Shown here: piece after piece, positions 10,168 through 31,850 of the stretch
How positions within the stretch are numbered: position 1 is the stretch's first letter
Layout: every line of letters starts with the position of its first letter
Assembly: GCA_965199045.1 (NCBI GenBank)
Contig: CBDAQL010000004.1
Location: 627-64,626 of the forward strand
DNA: 64,000 nucleotides
Direction: 5' to 3'
DNA from: Acidocella sp.
GTDB lineage: Bacteria > Pseudomonadota > Alphaproteobacteria > Acetobacterales > Acetobacteraceae
Position numbers and translations under genes: made by a program
Notes under the pieces: generated by a model
Seen by the model: only the letters and a program-made list of their open reading frames with translations
Database searches by the model: none
What the model was told of the DNA's origin: nothing

Positions 10168-12579
10168 TTAAGCTTGACTGCGAACGTCCGTGCCTGCGGC
10201 CAGCGCAGCTTGATCCTGGATTTTGAACAGCGCCAAGATCTCGCTGGCCGCAACGGGCTTGCTGAACAGGAACCCCTGTACTTCGTCGCACGCGTGGACG
10301 CGCAGGAACGCGTTCTGCTCCGGGGTTTCCACGCCTTCGGCCACAATCATCAGCCCAAGCGCCTTGCCCATATCGATAATTGCCCGGGCGATTGCATTAT
10401 CCGCGGCATTATGCGGCAAATCGCGAACAAAGGACTGGTCGATTTTTATGATGTCGATCGGGAAACGCCTGAGCATCGACATCGATGAGTAACCGGTGCC
10501 GAAATCATCGATCGCGACCCGCACCCCCCGGCTCTGGATCGCATTTAGCGTCCGGATCGCGCGTTCGACATTCAACAGCACCATATTCTCGGTAATTTCA
10601 ATCTGCAGGTGCCGCGGGTCCATCCCGCACGCGCCCAGGGCAGAGTCGATATCGGCCAGCAGATACTCATCGGAGAACTGCCGGGGTGAGACGTTTACCG
10701 CTATGGATTTGACCGGCAAAGCCTCAGCTTGCCAGCGCGTGAACTGCAGGCAGGCGGTATTCAGCACCCAGCGGCCGATTGCAATGATCAGCCCGGTTTC
10801 CTCCGCTACAGGAATGAAATCCATCGGCGATATCATGCCCATTGTTGGATGGTTCCAACGCAGCAGCGCCTCGACGCCTGAAATCTGCCTGCTCTCAACA
10901 TCGACCTTTGGCTGATAGACCAGCGTGAACTCGCCTCGGTGAAGCGCCTGGCGAAGGTCTGCTTCCATTGCCAATCGGCCGGAGGATTGCGCCCCGATAT
11001 CGGCCGAGAAGAATCGGACGTCGTTCTTGCCCTCGGTTTTAGCAAGATACATTGCGGTGTCGGCATGGCGCATCAGCGTGTCGACATCGGTACCATCCTG
11101 AGGGAAGATGGCAATTCCGATGCTGCCGGTTACGTGGCATTCATGGCCGTTCAATTCCACCGGAATGCCCAGAATCGCAACCAGGTTCCTGGCCACTCCA
11201 CGCACTTCTTCCGCATCGGAAATCTCATTGAGCAAGACCATGAACTCATCGCCGCCCAGGCGTGCCACCACATCGTCGGCGCGCACCCCGCTGCGCAAAC
11301 GCGACGCCACCTCGACCAACAGGCGGTCTCCCGCGGCGTGGCCAAGCGAATCGTTAATAACTTTAAAGCGGTCGAGATCGACGAACAAAACCGCGCAGCG
11401 GCGATGGTAGCGGCGCGCGGCTCTCAGCGAATTACCTAGAAGTTCGTTGAAAGTCGCCCGATTAGGCAAATTCGTCAGGCTGTCATGGGTTGCTAAATGC
11501 CGGATCCGGTCGTCCGCCAGCTTGCGTTCTTCGGCACGTTCGAAATTCTCGAACGCGAACGAAACATTGGCGGCAAGGCGTTCGAGGATCGTCACGAGAT
11601 CGGGGGTGAAGGTTCCAACTTCTGCAGACGTCACATTCATGACCGCAATCGCCTTGCCCCGGCTGCCCAAAGCCACGGAAACCATCGACTGCGCATTAAT
11701 CGCCTGGATCACATCAAAATACACCGTGCCGGCATATTCCTTCAATAAATCATTGCACACCTGGGTCTTGCCGGTCAGTAAGGCGATGCCTGAAGTGCTT
11801 AACTTGCTGGTATCCTCGTCTCGTAACGGGACCGCATAATCCTGATAGGATTGAATCATCGTTCCGGCGCCAGCGACGTAGCGGAAAAAACTTTTGGTTT
11901 CATCTGGCTCGGACACCGAGACGCCTGCAAAATTTCCGCCATTGACCACGGTCTCGCAAATCAGCTGGTATAGGTTGCTGCGATTATCGGCCCGCATCAG
12001 AGTCTCGTTCGTTGCACTTAACGTCGCAACCAACAGGTTAAACCGTGCCGTGCGCTCGTCGCGCGCAAGGCGATCCCACCTGAAGGCCAGGTTTCCGGCT
12101 ATCCGCGCCAGTTCCAAAGCAAGCGCATCGCCGATGCAATGCGGTGTGTCGAAATAAAATAGTACGACGCCCAGGGCCTGGTCTTCAATAAGCATTGGTA
12201 CCGCGGCGCCGGTACCAGAATGCTGGCCAGGGTCCGGCGGGTAGCCTAGAGTGGCTGGCGCGTCGGCTGCGTACTCATTGGCAAGGCGTATAGTTTTACT
12301 TCGGAATGCGGATTCCGCGAGATCGCTACTCGCGTCGGTCAGCGGCGATGCCGGGGGGCCCGGATCGGCTGGGGCGATCGCGCTCGCCTCAATCCGGAGC
12401 TCGCCATCCTGGTTTGGGACGAGGACTGCCATGGCAGCCAACCACGTGCCGGTGACCGCAGCGTCGCAAACCAGCTGAAACAGGCCTTCGCGGGATGGCG
12501 CCCGCAAAATGGCGTCCGCGATTGCGTTGAGAACAGCTTGGCTGCGGTTGTTTGTGACATCGTAATCGTGTTGCTGCAC
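10168..12579 (-). CDS. GAF-GAF-GGDEF-EAL diguanylate cyclase/phosphodiesterase
   Basis: ATHDSLTNLPNR, RADD I-site, ARLGGDEF, EALLRW and DDFGTGYSS; two GAF-like repeats at the N-terminus; GTG start. Confidence 0.92.
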   Translation of the reverse strand: MQQHDYDVTNNRSQAVLNAIADAILRAPSREGLFQLVCDAAVTGTWLAAMAVLVPNQDGELRIEASAIAPADPGPPASPLTDASSDLAESAFRSKTIRLANEYAADAPATLGYPPDPGQHSGTGAAVPMLIEDQALGVVLFYFDTPHCIGDALALELARIAGNLAFRWDRLARDERTARFNLLVATLSATNETLMRADNRSNLYQLICETVVNGGNFAGVSVSEPDETKSFFRYVAGAGTMIQSYQDYAVPLRDEDTSKLSTSGIALLTGKTQVCNDLLKEYAGTVYFDVIQAINAQSMVSVALGSRGKAIAVMNVTSAEVGTFTPDLVTILERLAANVSFAFENFERAEERKLADDRIRHLATHDSLTNLPNRATFNELLGNSLRAARRYHRRCAVLFVDLDRFKVINDSLGHAAGDRLLVEVASRLRSGVRADDVVARLGGDEFMVLLNEISDAEEVRGVARNLVAILGIPVELNGHECHVTGSIGIAIFPQDGTDVDTLMRHADTAMYLAKTEGKNDVRFFSADIGAQSSGRLAMEADLRQALHRGEFTLVYQPKVDVESRQISGVEALLRWNHPTMGMISPMDFIPVAEETGLIIAIGRWVLNTACLQFTRWQAEALPVKSIAVNVSPRQFSDEYLLADIDSALGACGMDPRHLQIEITENMVLLNVERAIRTLNAIQSRGVRVAIDDFGTGYSSMSMLRRFPIDIIKIDQSFVRDLPHNAADNAIARAIIDMGKALGLMIVAEGVETPEQNAFLRVHACDEVQGFLFSKPVAASEILALFKIQDQAALAAGTDVRSQA

Positions 12580-14796: not shown

Positions 14797-17514
14797 ATGC
14801 CGCAGCAGCTGCTTATGAGAATTCCACGCTTTTCAGATATCCCGATTGTCTACAAGATCAGCCTTCCTCAAGCCTTTGCGCTCCTCATACTCGGAAGTGT
14901 TGGCGCGTTCCTGGTGGGTTCGCAACAACGGCAAACACTGGTGTTGGAAGCGGCGATCGGAGCTGACACCGCGCAAGCCAAACTTGCCGTGGCGGCGCGA
15001 AGCTTGACCATTATCAATAACCAGCTTTACGCGCTTACCGCCGCCCAGGCCCTGGGTAGTTCGCAAGACGATCGTCAAAAATCCCTGCAGAACATCCTGG
15101 ACGAAGTAGACGATGTTGGTACTAATCTCGCAACACTCGGTCCGCAACTATCAAACCAACAAGGCAACAGCTTAGCCGGCATCTTGCAGGACCTTGCAAG
15201 CTATCGGAGTGTGATCGAGCCAGCGCGATTGCCACGCAACGTCGATTTCCGTGCAGCGGCCGCGGGGCTGCCGCCATTCGGCCTCGCTTACGCGCAAATA
15301 ACGCGGGTACTCAATCAGACCTCTCAAAGCCTGGCCGAGACGACCACCGAGCAGGTAGGTAACAGCGTAAACGAAACGAATTTCATCAGCAGAGTAATGT
15401 TCATTCTGGTCTGTTGCACTTTGCTGCTGACGATGACGGTGGCGCCATTAATCACCACGGCGGTGCAGCGGGCTATCATACTGATTTGCGAGGCCACGGT
15501 GTGTCTGGCTTCCGGCCGCAATGATGTTGATCTGGAGCGCCTTGAGCGGGGCGATGAATTTGGTGCAATTGTTCGGTCGATGATCATCTTTCGTGAGAAT
15601 CAATACCGGATCATTGCATTAAACGCCGAGAGTGCGGCGATGCAGGCCCAGCAGGAAGCAACGCGCATTGATCAGGAACGCATCACCTGCATGATCTCGG
15701 CGTTAAGCGCGACCAACGAAGCAATATTGCATGCCGAGACCCGCGGCAAACTGTTTCAACTGGTGTGCGAGGCGGCTGTGCTTGGTGGCAAATTCTCCGG
15801 GGCCAGCATCGCGTTGCCAGACCCCGGCGGTAACTTCCTTCGCTTTGTGGCGGTCGACGGTCCTATTGGAGAGCGGTTGCGCGAGATCGAAATACCGCTC
15901 CGCTCGGCGCGGTCTGGCGTGCCGTCGATGGTTGCAAATGCCTTCCTTACAAAGACCCCGTGCGTTGAAAACAATCTTCAAATACATCGAGCTGTAAGCG
16001 ATGGCCTTCCAGAGATTGAGGCGCATTCCGCGGCGGCTGTACCGCTGATTAGCGATAGCAAAGCGGTGTGTGTCCTGCTTTTTCTGTCCGCGGAACCGAA
16101 CACATTTATCCTTGCCTTTGTTGAACTGCTTCAACGTCTGACCCGCAACGTTGCGTTTGCGCTTGAGAACCTTGATCGTGCCGGTGAAAAGCAGCAGGCT
16201 GAAGAGCGGATCAGGCATCTTGCGACCCATGATGGTTTGACCGATTTGCCAAACCGGACGCTTTTCAATCAGCTGTTGGAGTTTTCCATCCAGACTGCGA
16301 AACGCCATCAACAATCTTGCGCCGTCTTATTCGTCGATCTGGACAGGTTCAAGCTGATCAACGACTCCCTTGGTCATGCCGCGGGGGACGCATTGTTGGT
16401 GGAGATGGCGCGCAGGCTGCGCGACAGCGTGCGTGCGTGTGACGTCGTGGCTAGGATTGGCGGCGACGAATTCGTGGTGCTGTTAAATGAGATCAACGGC
16501 GCGCATCAGGTTAAAAGAATGGCGGACCGCATCTTGTCCTGCCTTAGCGAGTCCATTGATTTGAACGGTCAGGAATGCCGTGTTACCGCCAGTATCGGCA
16601 TAGCCATCTATCCGGATGACGGTATTGATGACAAGACGCTAACGCAACACGCTGATCTGGCAATGTACCTTGCTAAAACGGAGGGCAAGAATGGCGTCCG
16701 GCTGTTTACGCCGCAGATTAAATCACAATCAGCCGATAGGTTGCTGATCGAATCGGACTTGCGAAATGCCTTGCATCGGGATGAACTTCGTCTGCATTAC
16801 CAGCCGAAACTCGATGTTCGTAAAAATCATATTTGCGGTGTCGAGGCCTTGGTGCGCTGGCAGCATCCCCAACTCGGATTGCTGGCACCGGTGCGGTTTA
16901 TCCCAATAGCGGAGGAAACCGACCTGATCCTTCCGATCGGAAGCTGGGTCATAAAGACCGCTTGTGCTCAGAACATAGCTTGGCAACAACAGGGGTTTGA
17001 CGATATGTCCATGGCGGTTAATGTCTCACCGCGGCAATTCATGGACGATAATCTGCTGCGGGATATTGACGATGCACTCGCCACCAGCGGCATGGAACCA
17101 AAACTCCTGCAGATAGAAATAACCGAGAGCATGGTTATGCTCAATATCGAACGGGCGATCCGGATCCTTAACTCAATTCATGAGCGCGGTGTACGATTGG
17201 CGATCGATGATTTCGGAACCGGATATTCGTCAATGTCGATGCTAAAGCGCTTTCCGATCGACACCATCAAGATCGATCGCTCTTTCGTTCAGGAGCTGCC
17301 GCAGAACACTCAGGACAAGGCCATTGCAAGCGCGATTATCAACATGGGAAAGGCGCTTGGACTTAGGATTGTTGCTGAAGGTGTGGAAACAGTTGAGCAG
17401 GAGGAATTTTTAGTGGACCAGGGATGTGACGAAATACAAGGCTATTTGTTTAGTAAACCTGGTCCGGCCGAAAAAATCGCTCAGCTTTTCAGGCTTCCTG
17501 TTGTAACTTCCTGA
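14797..17514 (+). CDS. Membrane sensor-HAMP-GAF-GGDEF-EAL protein
   Basis: TM-helical sensor-TM, HAMP (ERGDEFGAIVRSMIIFREN), GAF, RACD I-site, ARIGGDEF, EALVRW and DDFGTGYSS. Confidence 0.9.
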   Translation: MPQQLLMRIPRFSDIPIVYKISLPQAFALLILGSVGAFLVGSQQRQTLVLEAAIGADTAQAKLAVAARSLTIINNQLYALTAAQALGSSQDDRQKSLQNILDEVDDVGTNLATLGPQLSNQQGNSLAGILQDLASYRSVIEPARLPRNVDFRAAAAGLPPFGLAYAQITRVLNQTSQSLAETTTEQVGNSVNETNFISRVMFILVCCTLLLTMTVAPLITTAVQRAIILICEATVCLASGRNDVDLERLERGDEFGAIVRSMIIFRENQYRIIALNAESAAMQAQQEATRIDQERITCMISALSATNEAILHAETRGKLFQLVCEAAVLGGKFSGASIALPDPGGNFLRFVAVDGPIGERLREIEIPLRSARSGVPSMVANAFLTKTPCVENNLQIHRAVSDGLPEIEAHSAAAVPLISDSKAVCVLLFLSAEPNTFILAFVELLQRLTRNVAFALENLDRAGEKQQAEERIRHLATHDGLTDLPNRTLFNQLLEFSIQTAKRHQQSCAVLFVDLDRFKLINDSLGHAAGDALLVEMARRLRDSVRACDVVARIGGDEFVVLLNEINGAHQVKRMADRILSCLSESIDLNGQECRVTASIGIAIYPDDGIDDKTLTQHADLAMYLAKTEGKNGVRLFTPQIKSQSADRLLIESDLRNALHRDELRLHYQPKLDVRKNHICGVEALVRWQHPQLGLLAPVRFIPIAEETDLILPIGSWVIKTACAQNIAWQQQGFDDMSMAVNVSPRQFMDDNLLRDIDDALATSGMEPKLLQIEITESMVMLNIERAIRILNSIHERGVRLAIDDFGTGYSSMSMLKRFPIDTIKIDRSFVQELPQNTQDKAIASAIINMGKALGLRIVAEGVETVEQEEFLVDQGCDEIQGYLFSKPGPAEKIAQLFRLPVVTS

Positions 17515-17656: not shown

Positions 17657-20176
17657 TTAGAGAGAGACCGCCTTATTCGCCATGAAGCGCGCCAGATAGG
17701 TTGCAGTGCGGCTGGTCGCGGCATGGGCCAGTTTTTCCGGAGGGCCGGCGGCGACGATCCCGCCGCCTTCATCGCCGGCACCGGGGCCAATATCTATCAC
17801 CCAGTCGCTGGCTGCTACGACCTGCATATCATGCTCGACAACAACAACCGTGTTGCCGGCGTGAACCAGTCCGCCAAGCTGGGCGACCAGCCGCTCCACA
17901 TCGGCCGGGTGCAGCCCGGTGGTCGGTTCATCCAGCACGTAAAGCGTGTCGCCGCGCTGTACGCGTTGCAATTCGGTGGCAAGCTTGATCCGCTGTGCTT
18001 CGCCGCCGGAAAGCTCGGTTGCGGGTTGGCCCAGACGCAGGTAGCCAAGGCCCACCTCCCGGACTACGCTCAGCGCGCGATGCAAAGCGGTTTGATCGGC
18101 AAAGAATTCGTAGGCGCCGTCCACGGTCATACTCAGCACGTCGGCGATGGTTTTGCCCCGATAACTCACTTTGAGCGTTGCGGCATTATAGCGCGCGCCA
18201 TGGCAGGTGGGGCAGGGGCTGTAGACGCTGGGCAGGAACAGCAGTTCCACCATCACGGAGCCTTCTCCGTTGCAGGTCTGGCAGCGCCCGGCGGCGACGT
18301 TGAACGAGAACCTGCCGGCGCCAAAACCCCGGGCCCGGGCCTGCCGGGTGGCAGCAAATAGTTTGCGAACATGGTCGAACAGCCCGGTATAGGTTGCAAG
18401 GTTTGAGCGCGGGGTGCGGCCGATCGGCTTCTGGTCTACCTGAACCAGGCGCTTGAGATTTTCCATGCCTCCGACGATGCGGCCGGCCGTGATTTGCGCC
18501 GGTGCCTGCTCCAGGTCCTGGCCGTCTTCTTCCGTGGCAACGCGATCGCCCAGCCGCGCCGCCACCAGCTCCACCAAAGCCTGGCTGACCAGGCTTGATT
18601 TGCCGGAGCCTGAAATCCCGGTGACGCTGGTGAGCACGCCGAGCGGAAAGTCTACGTTAAGACCTGCAAGGTTGTTGCGCGTTACGCCGGCCAGGCGCAG
18701 CCAATGCAGCGGGTCGCGCGGAGCCCGCGGCGGCACAGCTGCCGTGGGAAACAGGTAGCGGCCGGTTTGGGACGCCGCGACGGTGGCAAGGCCCGCCGGT
18801 GGCCCGCTGTACAAAATCTCACCGCCGCCTGCACCGGCCGCGGGCCCGACATCCACAAGCCAATCGGCGCGACGGATCACATCGAGATCGTGCTCGACGA
18901 CGAATAAGGAATTGCCCGCTTGTTTCAGGCGATCGAGAGCGGTGAGCAGTGCCTCCGTATCGGCCGGATGCAGGCCGGCCGAAGGCTCGTCCAGAACGTA
19001 GACAACGCCGAAGAGATTGGAATGTACCTGGGTTGCCAGCCGCAGGCGTTGCAACTCGCCGGGTGAGAGGGTGGGCGTGCTGCGATCCATCGCCAGATAG
19101 CCAAGACCGAGGTCAAGCAGAATGGCAAGCCGGGCGGTAAGATCAGCGGCAATCCGTTGCGCCGCCACCGCTTTTTCCGGATGCGCCCGTGCCATTGCCT
19201 TGGCGCCTGGCGCCGTGCCTTTCGCATAGGGCTGAAAGATGTCTACCAATTGCTTCAGCGCCAGCCCCGACATTTCCGCGATATCAAGCCCGGCGAATTT
19301 TACCGAGAGTGCTTCCAGGCGCAGACGCTTGCCGTGGCATAGCGGGCAATCTGCGCTTACCATATATTGCGCGACGCGCCGCTTCATCATCGCACTTTCG
19401 GAATTAGCGAAGGTGCCGAGCACATAGTTCCTGGCGCCGGTGAAGGTGCCCATGTACGAAGGCTCCTCCTTGCGCTTCAGGGCCCGCCGCACCTCGGCCG
19501 GCGTGAACCCGGCATAGACCGGAACGGTGGGATGCTCATCGGTGAACAGCAGCCAGTCCCGGTCCTTTTTTGCCAGATCCCGCCAGGGCCGGTCGACATC
19601 GTAGCCGAGCGTGACGGCGATGTCGCGCAGGTTCTGGCCTTGCCATGCGCTGGGCCAGGCAGCGATGGCACGCTCGCGGATCGTAAGGGTATCGTCGGGC
19701 ACCATCGAGGCTTCGGTGGCATCGTAGATGCGTCCAAGGCCGTGACATTTGGGGCAGGCGCCCTCTGGCGTGTTGGGTGAGAAGGATTCGGCGTAGAGTA
19801 ATTCCTGCCGCGGTGGATAATCACCGGTGCGCGAGTACAGCATGCGCAACAGGTTCGATAATGTGGTGACACTGCCGACCGACGAGCGCGTTGTGGGCAA
19901 ACTGCGTTGTTGCTGCAGGGCCACCGCCGGCGGCAACCCCTCGATTGCGTCAACTTCCGGCACCGCCATCTGGTCGAACAGGCGGCGGGCGTAGGGCGAG
20001 ACGGATTCCAGATACCGTCTCTGCGCCTCGGCGTAGAGCGTGCCGAAAGCCAAAGAGGACTTGCCGGAGCCAGAGACACCGGTAAAGACCACCAGCTGGT
20101 TGCGCGGAATATCGACATCGATATTTTTGAGATTGTGCTCGCGCGCGCCGCGCACATGAACGAAATCCTGCGGCAT
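17657..20176 (-). CDS. uvrA: UvrA-family ABC ATPase, short class-II (UvrA2/DrrC-like) type
   Basis: [13 protein letters not shown], two Walker A motifs ([18 protein letters not shown]), signatures LSPGELQR and LSGGEAQR, CxxC fingers. About 840 aa from ATG 20176, shorter than canonical UvrA. Confidence 0.88.
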
Positions 20177-20609
20177 CTGCACGGTCACTATTGCGAAACC
20201 GGAACAACGATGTTGGGGAGGGCTGCTAAGTAACTTGCTGTCGCGGCCGCAGTTGGCAGGCAGCTTACCGTTTTCGCGCGCGTTGCAAAGCGAGGCTCCG
20301 GAAATGGCGGGTTTAAACCGATAGAATGCATACCCAGTCAAATAGGTGCACCGCGAGCAAATTGCATGCTCGCATCCCGGCGTTGCGTAAGTCAGAAGTA
20401 TCGCGGGATCTGGCCGCGTTGCGGTGTCTGGCCGGCATGTGCACCGGCACCTCGTCGATATGACACCAGCCCTCAGCCCTCGGGCGGGTCATATCATCTT
20501 GATGATCGGATGGAATCTGGCGTGGCAATGCGCGGTGGCGTGACGGGCGTCGCAAGCCGAGCGCTGCACTGCCGCCGGGCGCTTCGGCTTTGCCGAGCAG
20601 GAGCTTCGG

Positions 20610-22451
20610 CTATTCATTGCAATTCGTCGCCTCGGCCGTGATCACCTTGAATAGGTCAGCCGTGACGGGTGGGTTGAACAAATTGCCTTGGGCGATGCAG
20701 CATCCCATCGCCGCCAACATGTCGCGCTCGTTCTGTTGCTCTACGCCCTCGGCGATGACGCGCACGTCCAACTCCGCGCCGAGTTTGATAACCGCCTCGA
20801 CGATCACCCGCTTCGCCGCGCTGAACGGCAGTCCTGCCACGAAGCTGCGGTCGATCTTTATCTCGGTCAGCGGGAAGCGTTCGAGATAGCGCAGGCTGGA
20901 ATGCCCGGTTCCGAAATCGTCAATCGACAGGCCGATCCCAAGCTCGCGCAGTTGGCGGAAGATGCCCAGCATCTCCGGTGAGTCCTCGGCGAGCAGGCTT
21001 TCGGTAAGCTCAAGCGTCAGCCATGCCGGCTCAATGCCGGTCTCGTCGATGACGCGCCGTACCAGGGATGCCATCTCCTGGTGGGTAAGCTCGATTGATG
21101 ACACGTTGAACGAGAAGCCCAGAGGCCTGCTCCGGGGTCGATTGAAGTTGGCGATAAATTGGGCGACCTCCCGCAAGCCGGCGGCTCCGATGTCGAGGAT
21201 CAGGCCGGTCTCCTCGGTGAGGCCGATGAAGCGAGAGGGTGGCTGCAGGCCGAACAGCGGATGCTGCCAACGGATCAAGGCCTCGGCCCCGATGATCTTG
21301 CCGCTCGGCAAATCGACCTGCGGCTGGTAGTGGTAGATGAATGCGTCGGCGGCGAGTGCACGCTGCAACTCGGACGTCATTTGCAGCCTTTGATGCGCGG
21401 TTGTTTCCCGTTCGACGGCGAATTCGCAGGGCCGGCGCAGCAGGCTCGCTTTCGAATCCGCCAGCGCCGCGCCCGCCTGGCGTGCCAGCGTCCTTGCATC
21501 CGCGCCAGGAGCGCCGGTAGCAAAGCCGATCGCGAAACGGATGATGAGATCGGCGTCCGGCAGGGTGAACCGCGCCGCCAGGCAACGGCTCAGCCGCTCC
21601 AGAACTTCCGCCACATTGCCGGGGTTTTCGAAGGCCAGTGCGAACTGGTCGCTGCCAAGCCGGACCACCAGATCGGCGCCGAATGTTTGCAGGCGCTCGG
21701 CGGTTGCCCTTAGCAGCGCATCGCCGACATCATAGCCGTAGCCGCCGTTGATCTCGTGAAAGCGGGCAATATCGAGCTTGATGAGCAGCACCCGGCTCGA
21801 CTTCGTTCGAGCCGATAGCTGCGCGACCAGCGCGTCGCGGTTGAGGCAGCCGGTCAGCCGGTCCGTGTGCAGCATCTCCTCGAGCCTGCCGGCTGTTGCG
21901 ACCTGCTCGGTCACATCCCTAATAAAGCCGGCATAATATGTCGGCGCGGCCGCGGGGCCATGGATCGGCACCAGATGGAGGTCGTTCCAGAACATGGTTC
22001 CATCTTTGCGGTAATTGCGGAGCCGGACCTGGGTTGCGGAGCCGGCCGCCAGGGCTGCGCGCAGGGTGCCGATCTGCGGCTGCAGGCGGTCGCTGCCCTG
22101 CAAATAGCGGCAGTTTTTGCCAATTGCCTCCTCCCGCGCATAGCCGGTTATGGTCTCGAAGGCAGAGTTGACATAAATGATCGGGGCATCTGCCTGGCGA
22201 ATGTCGGCGACCAGGATGCCCTCCGGCGCGCCTGCCATCAGGTTGGACCAAATATCATCCGGGAAGATCTTTCGACGCGGCAGGCGAAAGCGGGAGATAG
22301 GCTGAAGTATAGGCTTTTTGGGATCCAAGGACTCAACTCGGTAATTGCAATGCTCGCGCGCCGAGAGATGAAAGGCTTGGTCCGCCGGCACCCGAGCAAT
22401 GCGCCGCGGAGGTTCAAGAGGCAACCGAGAAGCGGTTGCAAATCGAGCCAA
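20610..22451 (-). CDS. LOV-GGDEF(degenerate)-EAL c-di-GMP phosphodiesterase; true start uncertain
   Basis: PIIYVNSAFETITGY..EAIGKNCRYLQG, NYRKDGTMFWN; GGDEF replaced by GSDQF; EALIRW and DDFGTGHSS intact. Confidence 0.88.
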   Translation of the reverse strand: MARFATASRLPLEPPRRIARVPADQAFHLSAREHCNYRVESLDPKKPILQPISRFRLPRRKIFPDDIWSNLMAGAPEGILVADIRQADAPIIYVNSAFETITGYAREEAIGKNCRYLQGSDRLQPQIGTLRAALAAGSATQVRLRNYRKDGTMFWNDLHLVPIHGPAAAPTYYAGFIRDVTEQVATAGRLEEMLHTDRLTGCLNRDALVAQLSARTKSSRVLLIKLDIARFHEINGGYGYDVGDALLRATAERLQTFGADLVVRLGSDQFALAFENPGNVAEVLERLSRCLAARFTLPDADLIIRFAIGFATGAPGADARTLARQAGAALADSKASLLRRPCEFAVERETTAHQRLQMTSELQRALAADAFIYHYQPQVDLPSGKIIGAEALIRWQHPLFGLQPPSRFIGLTEETGLILDIGAAGLREVAQFIANFNRPRSRPLGFSFNVSSIELTHQEMASLVRRVIDETGIEPAWLTLELTESLLAEDSPEMLGIFRQLRELGIGLSIDDFGTGHSSLRYLERFPLTEIKIDRSFVAGLPFSAAKRVIVEAVIKLGAELDVRVIAEGVEQQNERDMLAAMGCCIAQGNLFNPPVTADLFKVITAEATNCNE

Positions 22452-22463
22452 AAACCGGTTGCT

Positions 22464-23534
22464 TCAGGACATTCGGTCCTGACCGCCGTTGCCGGTGCTG
22501 AGCTTGAAACGGTCACGATATTCCTTGAGTGAAATTCCGAGCCTGCGTTGGAAAGTGCGGCGCGCGGAGTCGGCGGTGCCCAATCCGCTTTGCTTTGCCA
22601 CTTGATCGAGGGCAAGCGAGGTTGCCTCAAGCAGCCGCCGCGCGGTGTCGAGGCGGACCTGCTCGATATAGACGGCGGGACTGAGACCGGTCTCCTGACG
22701 GAACACCCGGGAGAAGTTACGTGGGCTCATCGCCACGTGCCTGGCGAGCGCGCGTAGGTTTAGCGTCTCTTCGGGATGGTTGAGGATCCAATTCTGAGCG
22801 CGGGCGATCGGCGATTGTGCGGCGGCCTGGGCCGCGAGCGGCACGCTGTATTGCGATTGGCCGCCCGGCCGCTTCAGATACATGACCATGTAGCGGGCAA
22901 CTGCGACCGCGAGGGCGCGGCCGTGATCCTCCTCGATCAGCGCGAGCGCCAGATCGATGCAGGCCGAGACCCCGGCGGAGGTGAATAGCGGCCCATCACG
23001 AATGAAGATCCTGTCGGGGTCCACCCGCGACAACGGAAAGTGAGTTCTGAGTTGATCGGCGTATGACCAATGGGTCGTCACGCTGTGCCCGTCGATGAGG
23101 CCGGCGGCCCCGAGTAGAAAGGCGCCGGTGCAGACGGCGCCGTAGCGGGTTGCGGAAGCACAGCCGTGCTGCAACCAATTGATAACCGCAGCGGACGGCG
23201 TATCCGGGATCCCGTAGCTGCCTGCGACAATGAGCGTATCCGCAGCGGGCATGAGATCGTTGATCGATCGGTCCGGGATGATCTTAAGGCCGGAGGCGCA
23301 TCGAATTGTTTCGGGCCGCTCCGACACCAGCGTCATGGTGTAGAGAGTAGCGCATTTTGCCTGCGTGTTCGCCTCATTAAAGACGTCCATGACGCCGGCT
23401 ACCTCCAGCCCATGCACATCGGTTGGCACGAAGATAACAACATTCCGCGGGGCGGTGGTGACCGGCTTGGCATGGCGAGCCGTACGGGTGTCGCTTTTCC
23501 GGGACGAAGGAACAGGATTATCATCCATGGTCAT
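22464..23534 (-). CDS. GlxA-family AraC regulator (DJ-1/PfpI sensor plus AraC HTH)
   Basis: AVCTGAFLLG, TSAGVSACIDL, KRPGGQSQYS and MSPRNFSRVF. Confidence 0.92.
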   Translation of the reverse strand: MTMDDNPVPSSRKSDTRTARHAKPVTTAPRNVVIFVPTDVHGLEVAGVMDVFNEANTQAKCATLYTMTLVSERPETIRCASGLKIIPDRSINDLMPAADTLIVAGSYGIPDTPSAAVINWLQHGCASATRYGAVCTGAFLLGAAGLIDGHSVTTHWSYADQLRTHFPLSRVDPDRIFIRDGPLFTSAGVSACIDLALALIEEDHGRALAVAVARYMVMYLKRPGGQSQYSVPLAAQAAAQSPIARAQNWILNHPEETLNLRALARHVAMSPRNFSRVFRQETGLSPAVYIEQVRLDTARRLLEATSLALDQVAKQSGLGTADSARRTFQRRLGISLKEYRDRFKLSTGNGGQDRMS

Positions 23535-30407: not shown

Positions 30408-31850
30408 TTAATAAAACACTTCAAGGGATTTGCGACGTTTACCACTTTGGCGCGAAGTTTTTAACGTTTCGATTGAAAAAGACGGTGAGAATTCCGTACG
30501 CGAAATAATCGAAGATACAAGTAATGACAATAGCAGGTAGAAATCAGGAGAAGTTATAACCGGCTCAGAGATAAGCCCGGCCACAATGGTTGTGATAATG
30601 GCAGCAGATATTCCACTTATGGTACGTCTTGACCCTATCTCGACGTTTAGTTTTGAAATTTTCTTCAACTCTAGGTATATCAGGGTGCCGAACCATAGAA
30701 ATCCGCAAATTCCCCACACGCCGATAGAAGCGCAAAGTCCCGGCAACAGGCTGGATGACCGGTTGCTGCCCCAACCCACTCCTAAACCGGAAGTTTCAAG
30801 CATTTCGTGAATGCTGTCAGAATCCGCAGCGGAACGATCACGGTAGGATGATGACTGCGATTTGCCCAAGGTTGAGTTGATGATGGTCGAAGCCTCGGTT
30901 GCTACACCGGGGGCGACCGCTGGTCCGATTAAGCAGGTGCCGCCCACTAATGTTGATATGATGATTGTTGCGACTACGACGCGCTGCCGAAATTTTGCTG
31001 AGGCGGAAACGATCGAACGTAGAATAAGTAAGCCGGCCATGACCCCCAAAGTTGCATAACCCGTGGTGGACGTGCTGAGGAGAGTGACAGATAAGCCGAG
31101 CCAGAATACCACCTGCAGGAAACGCCGCTTGTCGCCATTCAAAATCATCGAGGCGGAGGCTGCTACAGGCGCACATAGATAAGCGGCGAGCGATGAGGGT
31201 TCGCTGAAAGATCCGTTCAGGCGGATAAGCGAGCCAACCGTTTCCTCCGATAGTTGCGCCCATCCTGGGTTGCTTAGAAAGAAAGTGCTAGGATACCAGA
31301 GGTGGAAGGTATTTCCGGCAAATTGCCAAATCGCCACAAAATCGGCGATGAGACTCGCGGATAAGTAGCAGTCAAACAGTTTGTTGATTTGCACGCCTGG
31401 TCGCGCCAGATAAATCGCCGCAGCCACCGTCAGCATTGCGTCTGATAACAAATACATATCTTGAGTATAATTTCCAGCGTTGGGCGCCAACGGCAGTCGA
31501 ACCAGGAACAGAGCGGTTTTTTGCGGCCAGACCAGGACTTCTCCTTCAAATAGCCGGGGCATTACGAATGAACTTATCAAAGCGCCGGAAATTACCAATA
31601 TGAAGGGCGTCAGAAGTGTTAGCGCCGGACGCGCGGCAGGATAGCGAGCGCCGCAAAAAATACTGACCAGGAAGCACATGACGAACAAAGAGCAAGGCAA
31701 CAACGCAGGTGTAATGCCGGCCCCGCCAAAGACCGCGATCGCGGCGGCGGAAAAGACCGAGTAGTAAAAAACCAGAGCCAACAGCGTCCCTGGACGGTTG
31801 GCAACGAACATGCAAATTGGGATCAGAACTGTGCCGATTAACGGGATCAT
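30408..31850 (-). CDS. wzy: Wzy-like polymerase / O-antigen ligase-family membrane protein
   Basis: About 12 TM segments; RLNGSFSEPS and STSTTGY motifs, a periplasmic loop with DR, GLGVGWG; located in a polysaccharide locus. Confidence 0.65.
   Translation of the reverse strand: MIPLIGTVLIPICMFVANRPGTLLALVFYYSVFSAAAIAVFGGAGITPALLPCSLFVMCFLVSIFCGARYPAARPALTLLTPFILVISGALISSFVMPRLFEGEVLVWPQKTALFLVRLPLAPNAGNYTQDMYLLSDAMLTVAAAIYLARPGVQINKLFDCYLSASLIADFVAIWQFAGNTFHLWYPSTFFLSNPGWAQLSEETVGSLIRLNGSFSEPSSLAAYLCAPVAASASMILNGDKRRFLQVVFWLGLSVTLLSTSTTGYATLGVMAGLLILRSIVSASAKFRQRVVVATIIISTLVGGTCLIGPAVAPGVATEASTIINSTLGKSQSSSYRDRSAADSDSIHEMLETSGLGVGWGSNRSSSLLPGLCASIGVWGICGFLWFGTLIYLELKKISKLNVEIGSRRTISGISAAIITTIVAGLISEPVITSPDFYLLLSLLVSSIISRTEFSPSFSIETLKTSRQSGKRRKSLEVFY

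Follow-up and report, generated by a model that had tools for sequence, protein, structure and literature searches.

Characterised light-regulated phosphodiesterases of cyclic di-GMP (c-di-GMP), in which a flavin photosensor controls an EAL domain, include BlrP1 (BLUF-EAL) and Synechococcus SL2 (LOV-GGDEF-EAL). The sensor of BlrP1 is a BLUF domain, and the LOV domain of SL2 is canonical and carries the active-site glutamine (Gln). This Gln was reported to be generally dispensable in LOV receptors, and about 350 natural Gln-less LOV receptors were described, mainly with Leu or Ile in its place (Dietler et al. 2022, Nat Commun 13:2618, PMC9098866). The LOV-GGDEF-EAL protein WP_140774521.1 of Mesorhizobium loti carries Met at this site; its LOV-GGDEF fragment acted as a blue-light-repressed cyclase, and exchange of Met for Gln changed nothing (PMC9098866). 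The stretch of 64,000 nucleotides analysed here (hereafter the window; positions 627 to 64,626 of contig CBDAQL010000004.1, assembly GCA_965199045.1, Acidocella sp.) contains a relative of this gene on its reverse strand. With a probability of roughly two in three, the gene is read as encoding a light-gated c-di-GMP phosphodiesterase in which a Gln-less LOV photoreceptor would control a C-terminal EAL domain, and which would have its own promoter under an adjacent regulator of the GATR type (GATase1-like domain combined with an AraC-type helix-turn-helix, HTH). A preliminary description of the window, made from its letters alone, had suggested a blue-light- or redox-regulated c-di-GMP phosphodiesterase with a non-canonical mechanism. 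The present analysis supports this suggestion as far as sequence comparison can, and the background given with it, that natural Gln-less LOVs exist and can signal, agrees with the 2022 study.

Gene and domain architecture

The longest open reading frame (ORF) of the LOV gene spans positions 20610-22451 on the reverse strand (613 aa from TTG 22451, stop codon at 20610-20612), and GTG 22391 is a further possible start. In the homologue alignment, N-termini lie at or past the position of TTG 22328, and residues further upstream are not conserved. The gene was therefore taken as 20610-22328 (572 aa), with TTG 22328 as the likely start codon. Residue numbers refer to this 572-aa product unless the 613-aa ORF is named, and all features of the gene lie on the reverse strand.

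When the 613-aa ORF was compared with Pfam, matches were obtained to PAS_9 (residues 77-182, 64.6 bits), GGDEF (195-335, 67 bits) and EAL (361-595, 223 bits). Among the NCBIfam models, the YtvA-type (125 bits) and LOV histidine-kinase photoreceptor models matched the PAS part and the GGDEF-EAL phosphodiesterase models DibA, DosP and GepA the remainder, all below their equivalog cut-offs. An AlphaFold2 model of the protein had a mean predicted local distance difference test (pLDDT) score of 89.6. It shows a LOV β-sheet flanked by an A'α helix (22233-22259, residues 24-32, assigned with DSSP) and a Jα linker helix (21867-21911, residues 140-154). The LOV core including the terminal DVT motif occupies 21909-22220 (residues 37-140), as delimited by phmmer alignments without gaps against solved LOV domains (E ~1e-30) and by the predicted strands and helices; in the model its elements cover residues 37-138, and Ile136 lies within the last strand (129-138). 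Fifteen residues separate DVT from the DRLTG motif at the start of the GGDEF domain (21429-21863, residues 156-300), which is joined by a long connecting helix (residues 305-326) to the EAL barrel (20613-21341, residues 330-572). The protein is probably cytoplasmic, dimeric and flavin-binding.

The flavin pocket and the missing glutamine

In phmmer searches against all PDB chains, the LOV part was aligned without gaps to 8a3u, 7a6p and 7yx0 (Pseudomonas short LOVs and PpSB1-based chimeras), with E-values of 1e-29 to 1e-31. Where the solved domains read 'tyyigiQrdvt', this protein reads 'tyyagfIrdvt', and the position of the active-site Gln on strand Iβ is occupied by Ile136 (I177 in the 613-aa ORF), encoded by an ATT codon at 21921-21923. 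The other hallmarks of a LOV domain are in place. The PAS fold with LOV similarity is accompanied by the adduct-forming Cys (C73, C114 in the 613-aa ORF; TGC at 22110-22112), by both flavin-binding Asn (N105 and N115) and by both phosphate-binding Arg (R74 in NCR and R90 in 'IGTLRAAL'), the Asn and Arg being aligned to those of PpSB1-type LOVs. The adduct motif GxNCRFLQ is present as GKNCRYLQG, with Tyr for Phe.

These results bear out the preliminary description, which had placed the LOV domain at 21905-22260, a span that corresponds to the core plus the A'α helix, and had read from it that the photoactive Cys and both flavin Asn are kept (GKNCRYLQG, LRNYRKDG and FWND, all of which were found) and that the Gln is replaced by Ile. 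The possibility raised there, that a shifted register hides the Gln, was checked and ruled out, because the alignments to solved LOVs are free of gaps from the NCR motif to DVT; the Gln is thus truly replaced. The same alignment procedure called Gln in 39 LOV domains that are more distant and have the Cys, and it therefore detects the residue where it is present. The protein also passes the published filter for Gln-less LOVs, which asks for at least eight of nine residues (G59, N61, C62, R63, F64, L65, Q66, N94 and N104, YtvA numbering) and a residue other than Gln at Q123 (PMC9098866); by our own count eight of the nine match, Tyr standing at F64, and Ile occupies the Q123 position. A compensating change in the pocket, such as the Phe-to-Tyr exchange in NCRYLQ, was considered and rejected, since Tyr is equally common in Gln-bearing LOVs. 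Comparison of Gln-bearing with Gln-less domains gave no systematic difference in pocket residues, only conservative Ile/Leu swaps.

A Gln-less clade in Alphaproteobacteria

The best 120 homologues (49-98% identity) came from Propylenella, Novosphingobium, Bosea, Qipengyuania, Sphingomonas, Phyllobacteriaceae and many metagenomes, and 119 proteins including the present one were aligned. None has Gln at the active-site position, which is occupied by Ile (78 proteins), Leu (18), Met (18) or Val (5). The adduct Cys is kept in 116 of the 119, and the two Asn and two Arg show little or no variation in the family. That Cys, Asn and Arg persist throughout the clade while the Gln site holds Ile, Leu, Met or Val speaks for a functional flavin pocket maintained by purifying selection. 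The three members that have lost the Cys (P0021, with Val; P0027 and P0058, with Tyr) possess LOV-like domains with neither Cys nor Gln, P0027 reading GKNYWHLLA.

A tree was built from 130 full-length proteins, among which LOV-GGDEF-EAL proteins with Gln represented Planctomycetota, Burkholderiales and Xanthomonadales. All but one of the 119 Gln-less rows (118, the protein studied here among them) fall on one side of a branch with 100% support in the Shimodaira-Hasegawa-like approximate likelihood-ratio test (SH-aLRT); the outlying row, L011 (Leu), sits among Gln-bearing rows. Every row on the Gln-bearing side has an intact GGDEF motif.

To delimit the clade, the back-translated signature NCRYLQGxDRLQP, in which the Cys is present by construction of the pattern, was searched in 185,579 species genomes. 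It was found in 68 stretches, all from Alphaproteobacteria where named (Sphingomonadales, Hyphomicrobiales and Acetobacterales), and the 62 loci that could be scored have Ile (43), Met (12), Leu (6) or Val (1) at the Gln site. The variant with Phe gave 14 further stretches, nine of which are full-length clade members (seven from Mesorhizobium) with Ile or Met. The other five lie outside the clade: three Jeongeupia stretches and one from Stenomitos match in the LOV domain only and have Cys, Ser or His at the Gln site, and the fifth is a Methylocystis LOV that retains Gln. The present protein carries the signature NCR[YF]LQGxDRLQP and belongs to the clade. An orthologue at E 1e-120 was found in one of 400 sampled other alphaproteobacterial species, so that the family is rare and patchy. 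Two other searches were discarded. A profile-free one, with the LOV domain alone against 1.8 billion representatives, could not delimit the clade, as multi-PAS proteins with summed scores dominated its list. A locus search with the family alignment keyed on EAL peptides of a generic kind and yielded, for the most part, GGDEF-EAL genes that are unrelated; the back-translated signature worked instead.

The absence of Gln is a property of the whole alphaproteobacterial LOV-GGDEF-EAL clade across three orders and not an individual oddity. The initial observation of a Gln-less LOV thus stands, but not as a peculiarity of this protein, since the trait is clade-wide and sequences of the family, for instance the Novosphingobium sp. 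9U protein (P0036 in our set), are contained in the supplementary Gln-less alignment of the 2022 study (PMC9098866). In Ferrovum-like and other proteobacterial metagenome-assembled genomes (MAGs; loci L027-L035), another set of LOV domains, distinct from the clade, precedes a second PAS domain; these domains keep the Cys and carry Ile or Val in place of Gln (HFVAIINDIT). Given this group, Gln may have been lost more than once.

The length of the linker between LOV and GGDEF varies within the family: among the 120 homologues, it comprises 15 residues in 87, including the present protein, and five residues in at least 18. The five-residue linkers, seen for example in P0070 (GSNCF) and also in P0085, leave almost no room for a Jα helix.

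A degenerate GGDEF and an intact EAL domain

The GGDEF domain had been called degenerate and the EAL domain intact, and both readings hold. The motif GSDQF (21642-21656) is aligned without a gap on GGDEF/GGDKF of the solved domains 5m3c and 3icl and departs from the GG[D/E]EF of active diguanylate cyclases. The RxxD inhibitory site (I-site) five residues upstream of the motif is replaced by FGAD. Of the 55 rows in the subclade of the protein, all except two have GxDQF. Among other Gln-less sub-lineages, a Sphingomonadales-rich one has GxNSF, and the remaining lineages keep xxxEF (GGDEF, GGNEF or GSNEF); the tree implies only about two changes at position 4 of the motif. Among 62 aligned sequences of the family, the putative guanine-contacting residues, read by eye, are retained, N194 being invariant and D203 nearly so. 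With Asn and Asp of the guanine-binding type retained, the domain may still bind GTP as an allosteric ligand.

The EAL domain possesses the complete catalytic set (E349, R353, N408, E440/E443, D470/D471, K491, E527/E530 and Q547), and these residues are invariant in the 62 sequences. In Foldseek comparisons, its fold matched solved active EAL domains with template modelling (TM) scores of 0.91-0.94 (normalised by target) and 35-43% identity; identity to LapD was only 17-25%. The best whole-chain matches were DosP and RbdA/PA0861, the latter also solved in its GTP-bound form. Since the catalytic Glu and the I-site of the GGDEF domain are gone and the EAL site is invariant, the output of the protein should be hydrolysis only.

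The upstream regulator and the gene junction

Directly upstream of the LOV gene, on the same strand, lies a gene (22464-23534) for a regulator of the FtrA-GlxA type with a GATase1-like (DJ-1/PfpI) domain and an AraC-type HTH. It was assigned to the GATR class on the basis of its Pfam matches to DJ-1_PfpI (82 bits) and HTH_18 (72 bits). The NCBIfam models for FtrA (230 bits, cut-off 425) and GbdR (158 bits, cut-off 480) matched below their cut-offs, and the regulator is thus an equivalog of neither. Orthologues with 48-75% identity occupy the same position, amid otherwise differing neighbours, in Propylenella, a related MAG, Novosphingobium sp. 9U, Bosea sp. UC22_33, Qipengyuania, Sphingomonas sp. 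LT1P40 and another MAG.

The pairing follows the state of the GGDEF motif. A GATR gene is located upstream in 36 of 40 informative loci that have lost the Glu at position 4 and in 1 of 18 that keep xxxEF, and the raw Fisher test of a dead GGDEF domain against a GATR neighbour gave 8e-7 for the 51 informative loci with the Tyr signature (11 with xxxEF). On the tree, however, the motif state changes only twice, leaving two independent pairs, so that the association may reflect shared ancestry, and repeated co-evolution of a dead GGDEF domain with GATR was rejected as a demonstrated result. The pairing of GATR and LOV genes is a long-retained lineage trait.

At the junction, a candidate operator was recognised by eye in the alignment as a direct repeat, ATGTCC-N15-TTGGCT (22446-22472, reverse strand), which overlaps the stop codon of the regulator gene. 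In the GxDQF group the element reads TTGTCC-N15-TTGGCC, and it stays in place where the stop codon of the regulator is located 25-35 nt further upstream. A candidate promoter of the LOV gene, likewise read by eye in the aligned intergenic regions (22396-22424, reverse strand), consists of TTGCCT (22424-22419), a spacer of 17 nt and CATTGC (22401-22396), and begins 21 nt past the repeat. In the Sphingomonadales-rich group, TTGTCC is followed by the matching boxes TTGAAG ... GCATCGTC and then by GGAGG and ATG. A consensus scan of the junction returned no terminator. From this arrangement, the junction likely comprises an operator and the LOV gene's own promoter. Two other interpretations of the element were discarded. 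TGTCC-N(12-18)-TTTGG as an operator recurring in the window gave four matches against 0.85 expected (four were reached in 2 of 100 shuffles), and the other sites are not near relevant starts. An EcfG-type motif (GGAAC-N16-17-CGTT) was rejected because the spacer measures 14 nt and the group to which this gene belongs lacks the motif.

For the sub-lineages with a dead GGDEF domain, it is tentatively proposed, at somewhat less than even odds, that GATR and the Gln-less LOV-EAL protein form a conserved two-gene module with the operator in front of the LOV promoter, in which a chemical or redox signal sensed by the GATR protein would decide on the deployment of the light-gated phosphodiesterase. 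If true, this would be an unreported GATR-photoreceptor circuit in Sphingomonadales, Hyphomicrobiales and Acetobacterales. No report of a GATR gene linked to a photoreceptor gene was found in the literature searched, and what is new beyond that literature is the conserved GATR neighbour together with the cis-element in the dead-GGDEF lineages.

Proposed mechanism and alternative readings

Blue light would generate an adduct between the Cys and C4a of the flavin, followed by protonation of N5. Without Gln, the signal would be relayed through water and backbone contacts to the β-sheet and to the A'α and Jα helices, as proposed for Gln-less LOVs. The helical linker would then re-orient the catalytically dead GGDEF domain, which would serve as an adaptor and possibly as a GTP-binding allosteric module, and the shifted geometry of the EAL dimer would alter the rate of c-di-GMP hydrolysis. 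Transcription of the gene would probably start at a promoter of its own that the adjacent GATR-type AraC regulator controls, which would restrict light gating to times when the signal of the regulator is present. The early steps of this scheme are based on the 2022 work on Gln-less LOVs and the later ones on analogy.

Several points weigh against this reading. The tested M. loti relative was assayed as a truncated LOV-GGDEF fragment for cyclase output and not for the output of the EAL domain. Removal of Gln often weakens signalling in engineered receptors, according to the 2022 paper (PMC9098866). The AlphaFold2 model is a cofactor-free monomer and uninformative on flavin contacts and the dimer. 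GTP binding by the GGDEF domain is predicted from residues that were identified by eye, as were the operator and promoter, and the consensus scan of the junction returned no sigma-70-type promoter. The start codon is uncertain among 22328, 22391 and 22451.

A redox or oxygen sensor of the NifL or MmoS type, in which the reduction state of the flavin in the dark and not the adduct sets phosphodiesterase activity, would be in keeping with hydrophobic residues at the Gln site throughout the clade, with the descent of LOV domains from redox-active flavoproteins argued by Dietler et al. (PMC9098866), with a weak match to the NifL PAS model of NCBIfam (55 bits, well below the cut-off of 242), and with DosP, the nearest whole-fold match, being a gas sensor. 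This reading is unlikely: the adduct Cys, which has no known purpose in redox sensing, is nevertheless preserved in nearly all homologues, and the tested clade member responds to blue and not to red light. The scores for LOV photoreceptors (125 bits for the YtvA family, E 1e-30 for LOVs in the PDB) are also far better than that for NifL. The light response of the M. loti member also speaks against an uncoupled or vestigial LOV domain, in which case the phosphodiesterase would be constitutive or respond only to GTP, and the AraC-type neighbour would set its amount through transcription. Such decay would fit the dead GGDEF domain, the few clade members that have also lost the Cys, the linkers shortened to five residues and the attenuation often seen in engineered receptors after loss of Gln (PMC9098866). 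Yet (near-)invariant flavin-pocket residues among proteins that are about 50% identical overall would be unexpected for a vestigial domain, and this explanation is likewise considered improbable.

The combination of a degenerate GGDEF with an EAL domain, known from LapD and FimX, raises the further possibility of a catalytically silent receptor of c-di-GMP or GTP, or a scaffold, that relays light to a partner protein. LapD structures occur among the fold matches, and the LapD model of NCBIfam gives a weak match (108 bits, cut-off 1020). LapD and FimX lack several EAL catalytic residues, whereas the metal-binding and general-base residues are all invariant here, and identity is higher to active EAL domains (35-43%) than to LapD (17-25%), which leaves a silent receptor very improbable.

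The present protein is the only LOV protein of the NCR[FY]LQ type in the genome (3.5 Mb, 99.5% complete). BLUF proteins, a bacteriophytochrome and a photolyase were observed elsewhere in the genome, at C2:718079-718357, C3:159335-159610, C3:1979918-1980373 and C3:548579-549046. One of the two BLUF proteins is short, and the C-terminal part of the other, longer one resembles a B12-binding domain by eye (AppA-like). With two BLUF proteins, a bacteriophytochrome and a photolyase, light sensing is plausible for the organism.

Genomic surroundings

Immediately downstream, on the strand of the LOV gene (17657-20341), lies the gene for a class II UvrA paralogue, whose NCBIfam match to UvrA skips model residues ~118-262. 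Among the relatives, only Bosea sp. UC22_33 (L082/L224) and Sabulicella (L196) have a UvrA copy (70-74% identity) in the vicinity, close to the GATR-LOV pair in the former and to the LOV gene in the latter. A functional link was rejected, as the arrangement is conserved in only two other genomes. Two genes for GAF-GGDEF-EAL proteins with strong Pfam scores for GGDEF and EAL, at 10168-12579 (reverse strand) and 14797-17514 (forward strand), flank an amino-acid permease gene. Including the LOV gene, three genes of c-di-GMP turnover are thus located within 12 kb.

A polysaccharide locus had been placed about 7 kb from the LOV gene. The locus is real, with genes for a Wzz/GNVR kinase, GH16, GT8, a flippase and GT1 at 33-41 kb, but the LOV gene is separated from the first clear gene of the locus by 10.7 kb that include hydantoinase genes. 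In the seven related contigs that were inspected, the listed neighbours of the homologues include no polysaccharide genes. Because the linkage is not conserved in the relatives checked, a functional connection of this locus with the LOV gene was also discarded. Between a LuxR-type regulator gene and the Wzz/GNVR tyrosine-kinase gene, an ORF of 480 aa (30408-31850, reverse strand) is located in the stretch of lowest GC content in the window (0.49) and has no Pfam match. A plasmid nature of the contig found no support: beyond the window, it showed neither replication or partition genes nor a terminal overlap.

Significance and comparison with known systems

Gln-less LOVs bear on the question of how flavin protonation is signalled to effectors and on the proposed origin of LOV domains from redox flavoproteins. 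The protein adds nothing categorically new in this respect, because the 2022 paper had already covered the Gln-less class and included sequences of this family. It offers a compact natural test case, in which EAL hydrolysis is the only plausible output of a Gln-less LOV domain. The comparative picture, with Gln absent throughout the clade, about two changes of the GGDEF motif, and GATR with its cis-element, provides a concrete hypothesis for the control of these photoreceptors in vivo.

The M. loti protein WP_140774521.1 shares the domain order and the signature NCR[FY]LQGxDRLQP; its Gln site is likewise hydrophobic, and Cys, Asn and Arg are retained. Full-length identity between the present protein and the clade members from Mesorhizobium is 47-51%. 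The M. loti protein differs in having Met in place of Ile, and the M. loti lineage combines GSNEF/GSDEF with cyclase output, whereas GSDQF without an I-site is found here. Mesorhizobium loci, unlike the present one, have no GATR gene upstream.

RbdA/PA0861 of Pseudomonas aeruginosa (whole-fold match to 5xgb, 5xgd and 5xge, E 1e-40) and Caulobacter PdeA (CC3396; EAL match to 3u2e, 4hjf and 3s83, with TM scores of 0.91-0.94 by target) have the order PAS-GGDEF-EAL in common with it. As proposed for the present protein, the GGDEF domain of PdeA is a regulatory and not a catalytic module. In RbdA and PdeA, the EAL domain is activated when GTP binds to the GGDEF domain; for the present protein, GTP binding is a prediction. 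Both differ in that their sensor is a PAS and not a LOV domain, and the GGDEF motif of RbdA is intact. In DosP, the oxygen-sensing phosphodiesterase of E. coli, a sensor PAS domain similarly drives the EAL domain through an inactive GGDEF domain. It gave the best whole-structure match (9cmf, E 2e-44), and the NCBIfam DosP model scored 281 bits over GGDEF-EAL, below its cut-off; unlike the LOV protein, DosP has a haem cofactor and two PAS domains, and the identity is 21-22%. The LadC proteins, LOV-activated diguanylate cyclases (8c05; PMC10396304), resemble the present protein in the succession of LOV, Jα linker and GGDEF (E 4e-27 for the LOV part). They differ in that Gln is present, the GGDEF domain is active and an EAL domain is missing, the output being synthesis instead of hydrolysis.

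The product of the upstream gene has the two-domain build of the GATR regulators CdhR, GbdR and SouR (PMC5806209). The site of CdhR, GGTCGC-N15-GGTCGC, consists of two 6-nt direct repeats with a 15-nt spacer (PMC5806209). The candidate operator at the junction shares this architecture, with half-sites that differ from GGTCGC and read TTGTCC/TTGGCC.

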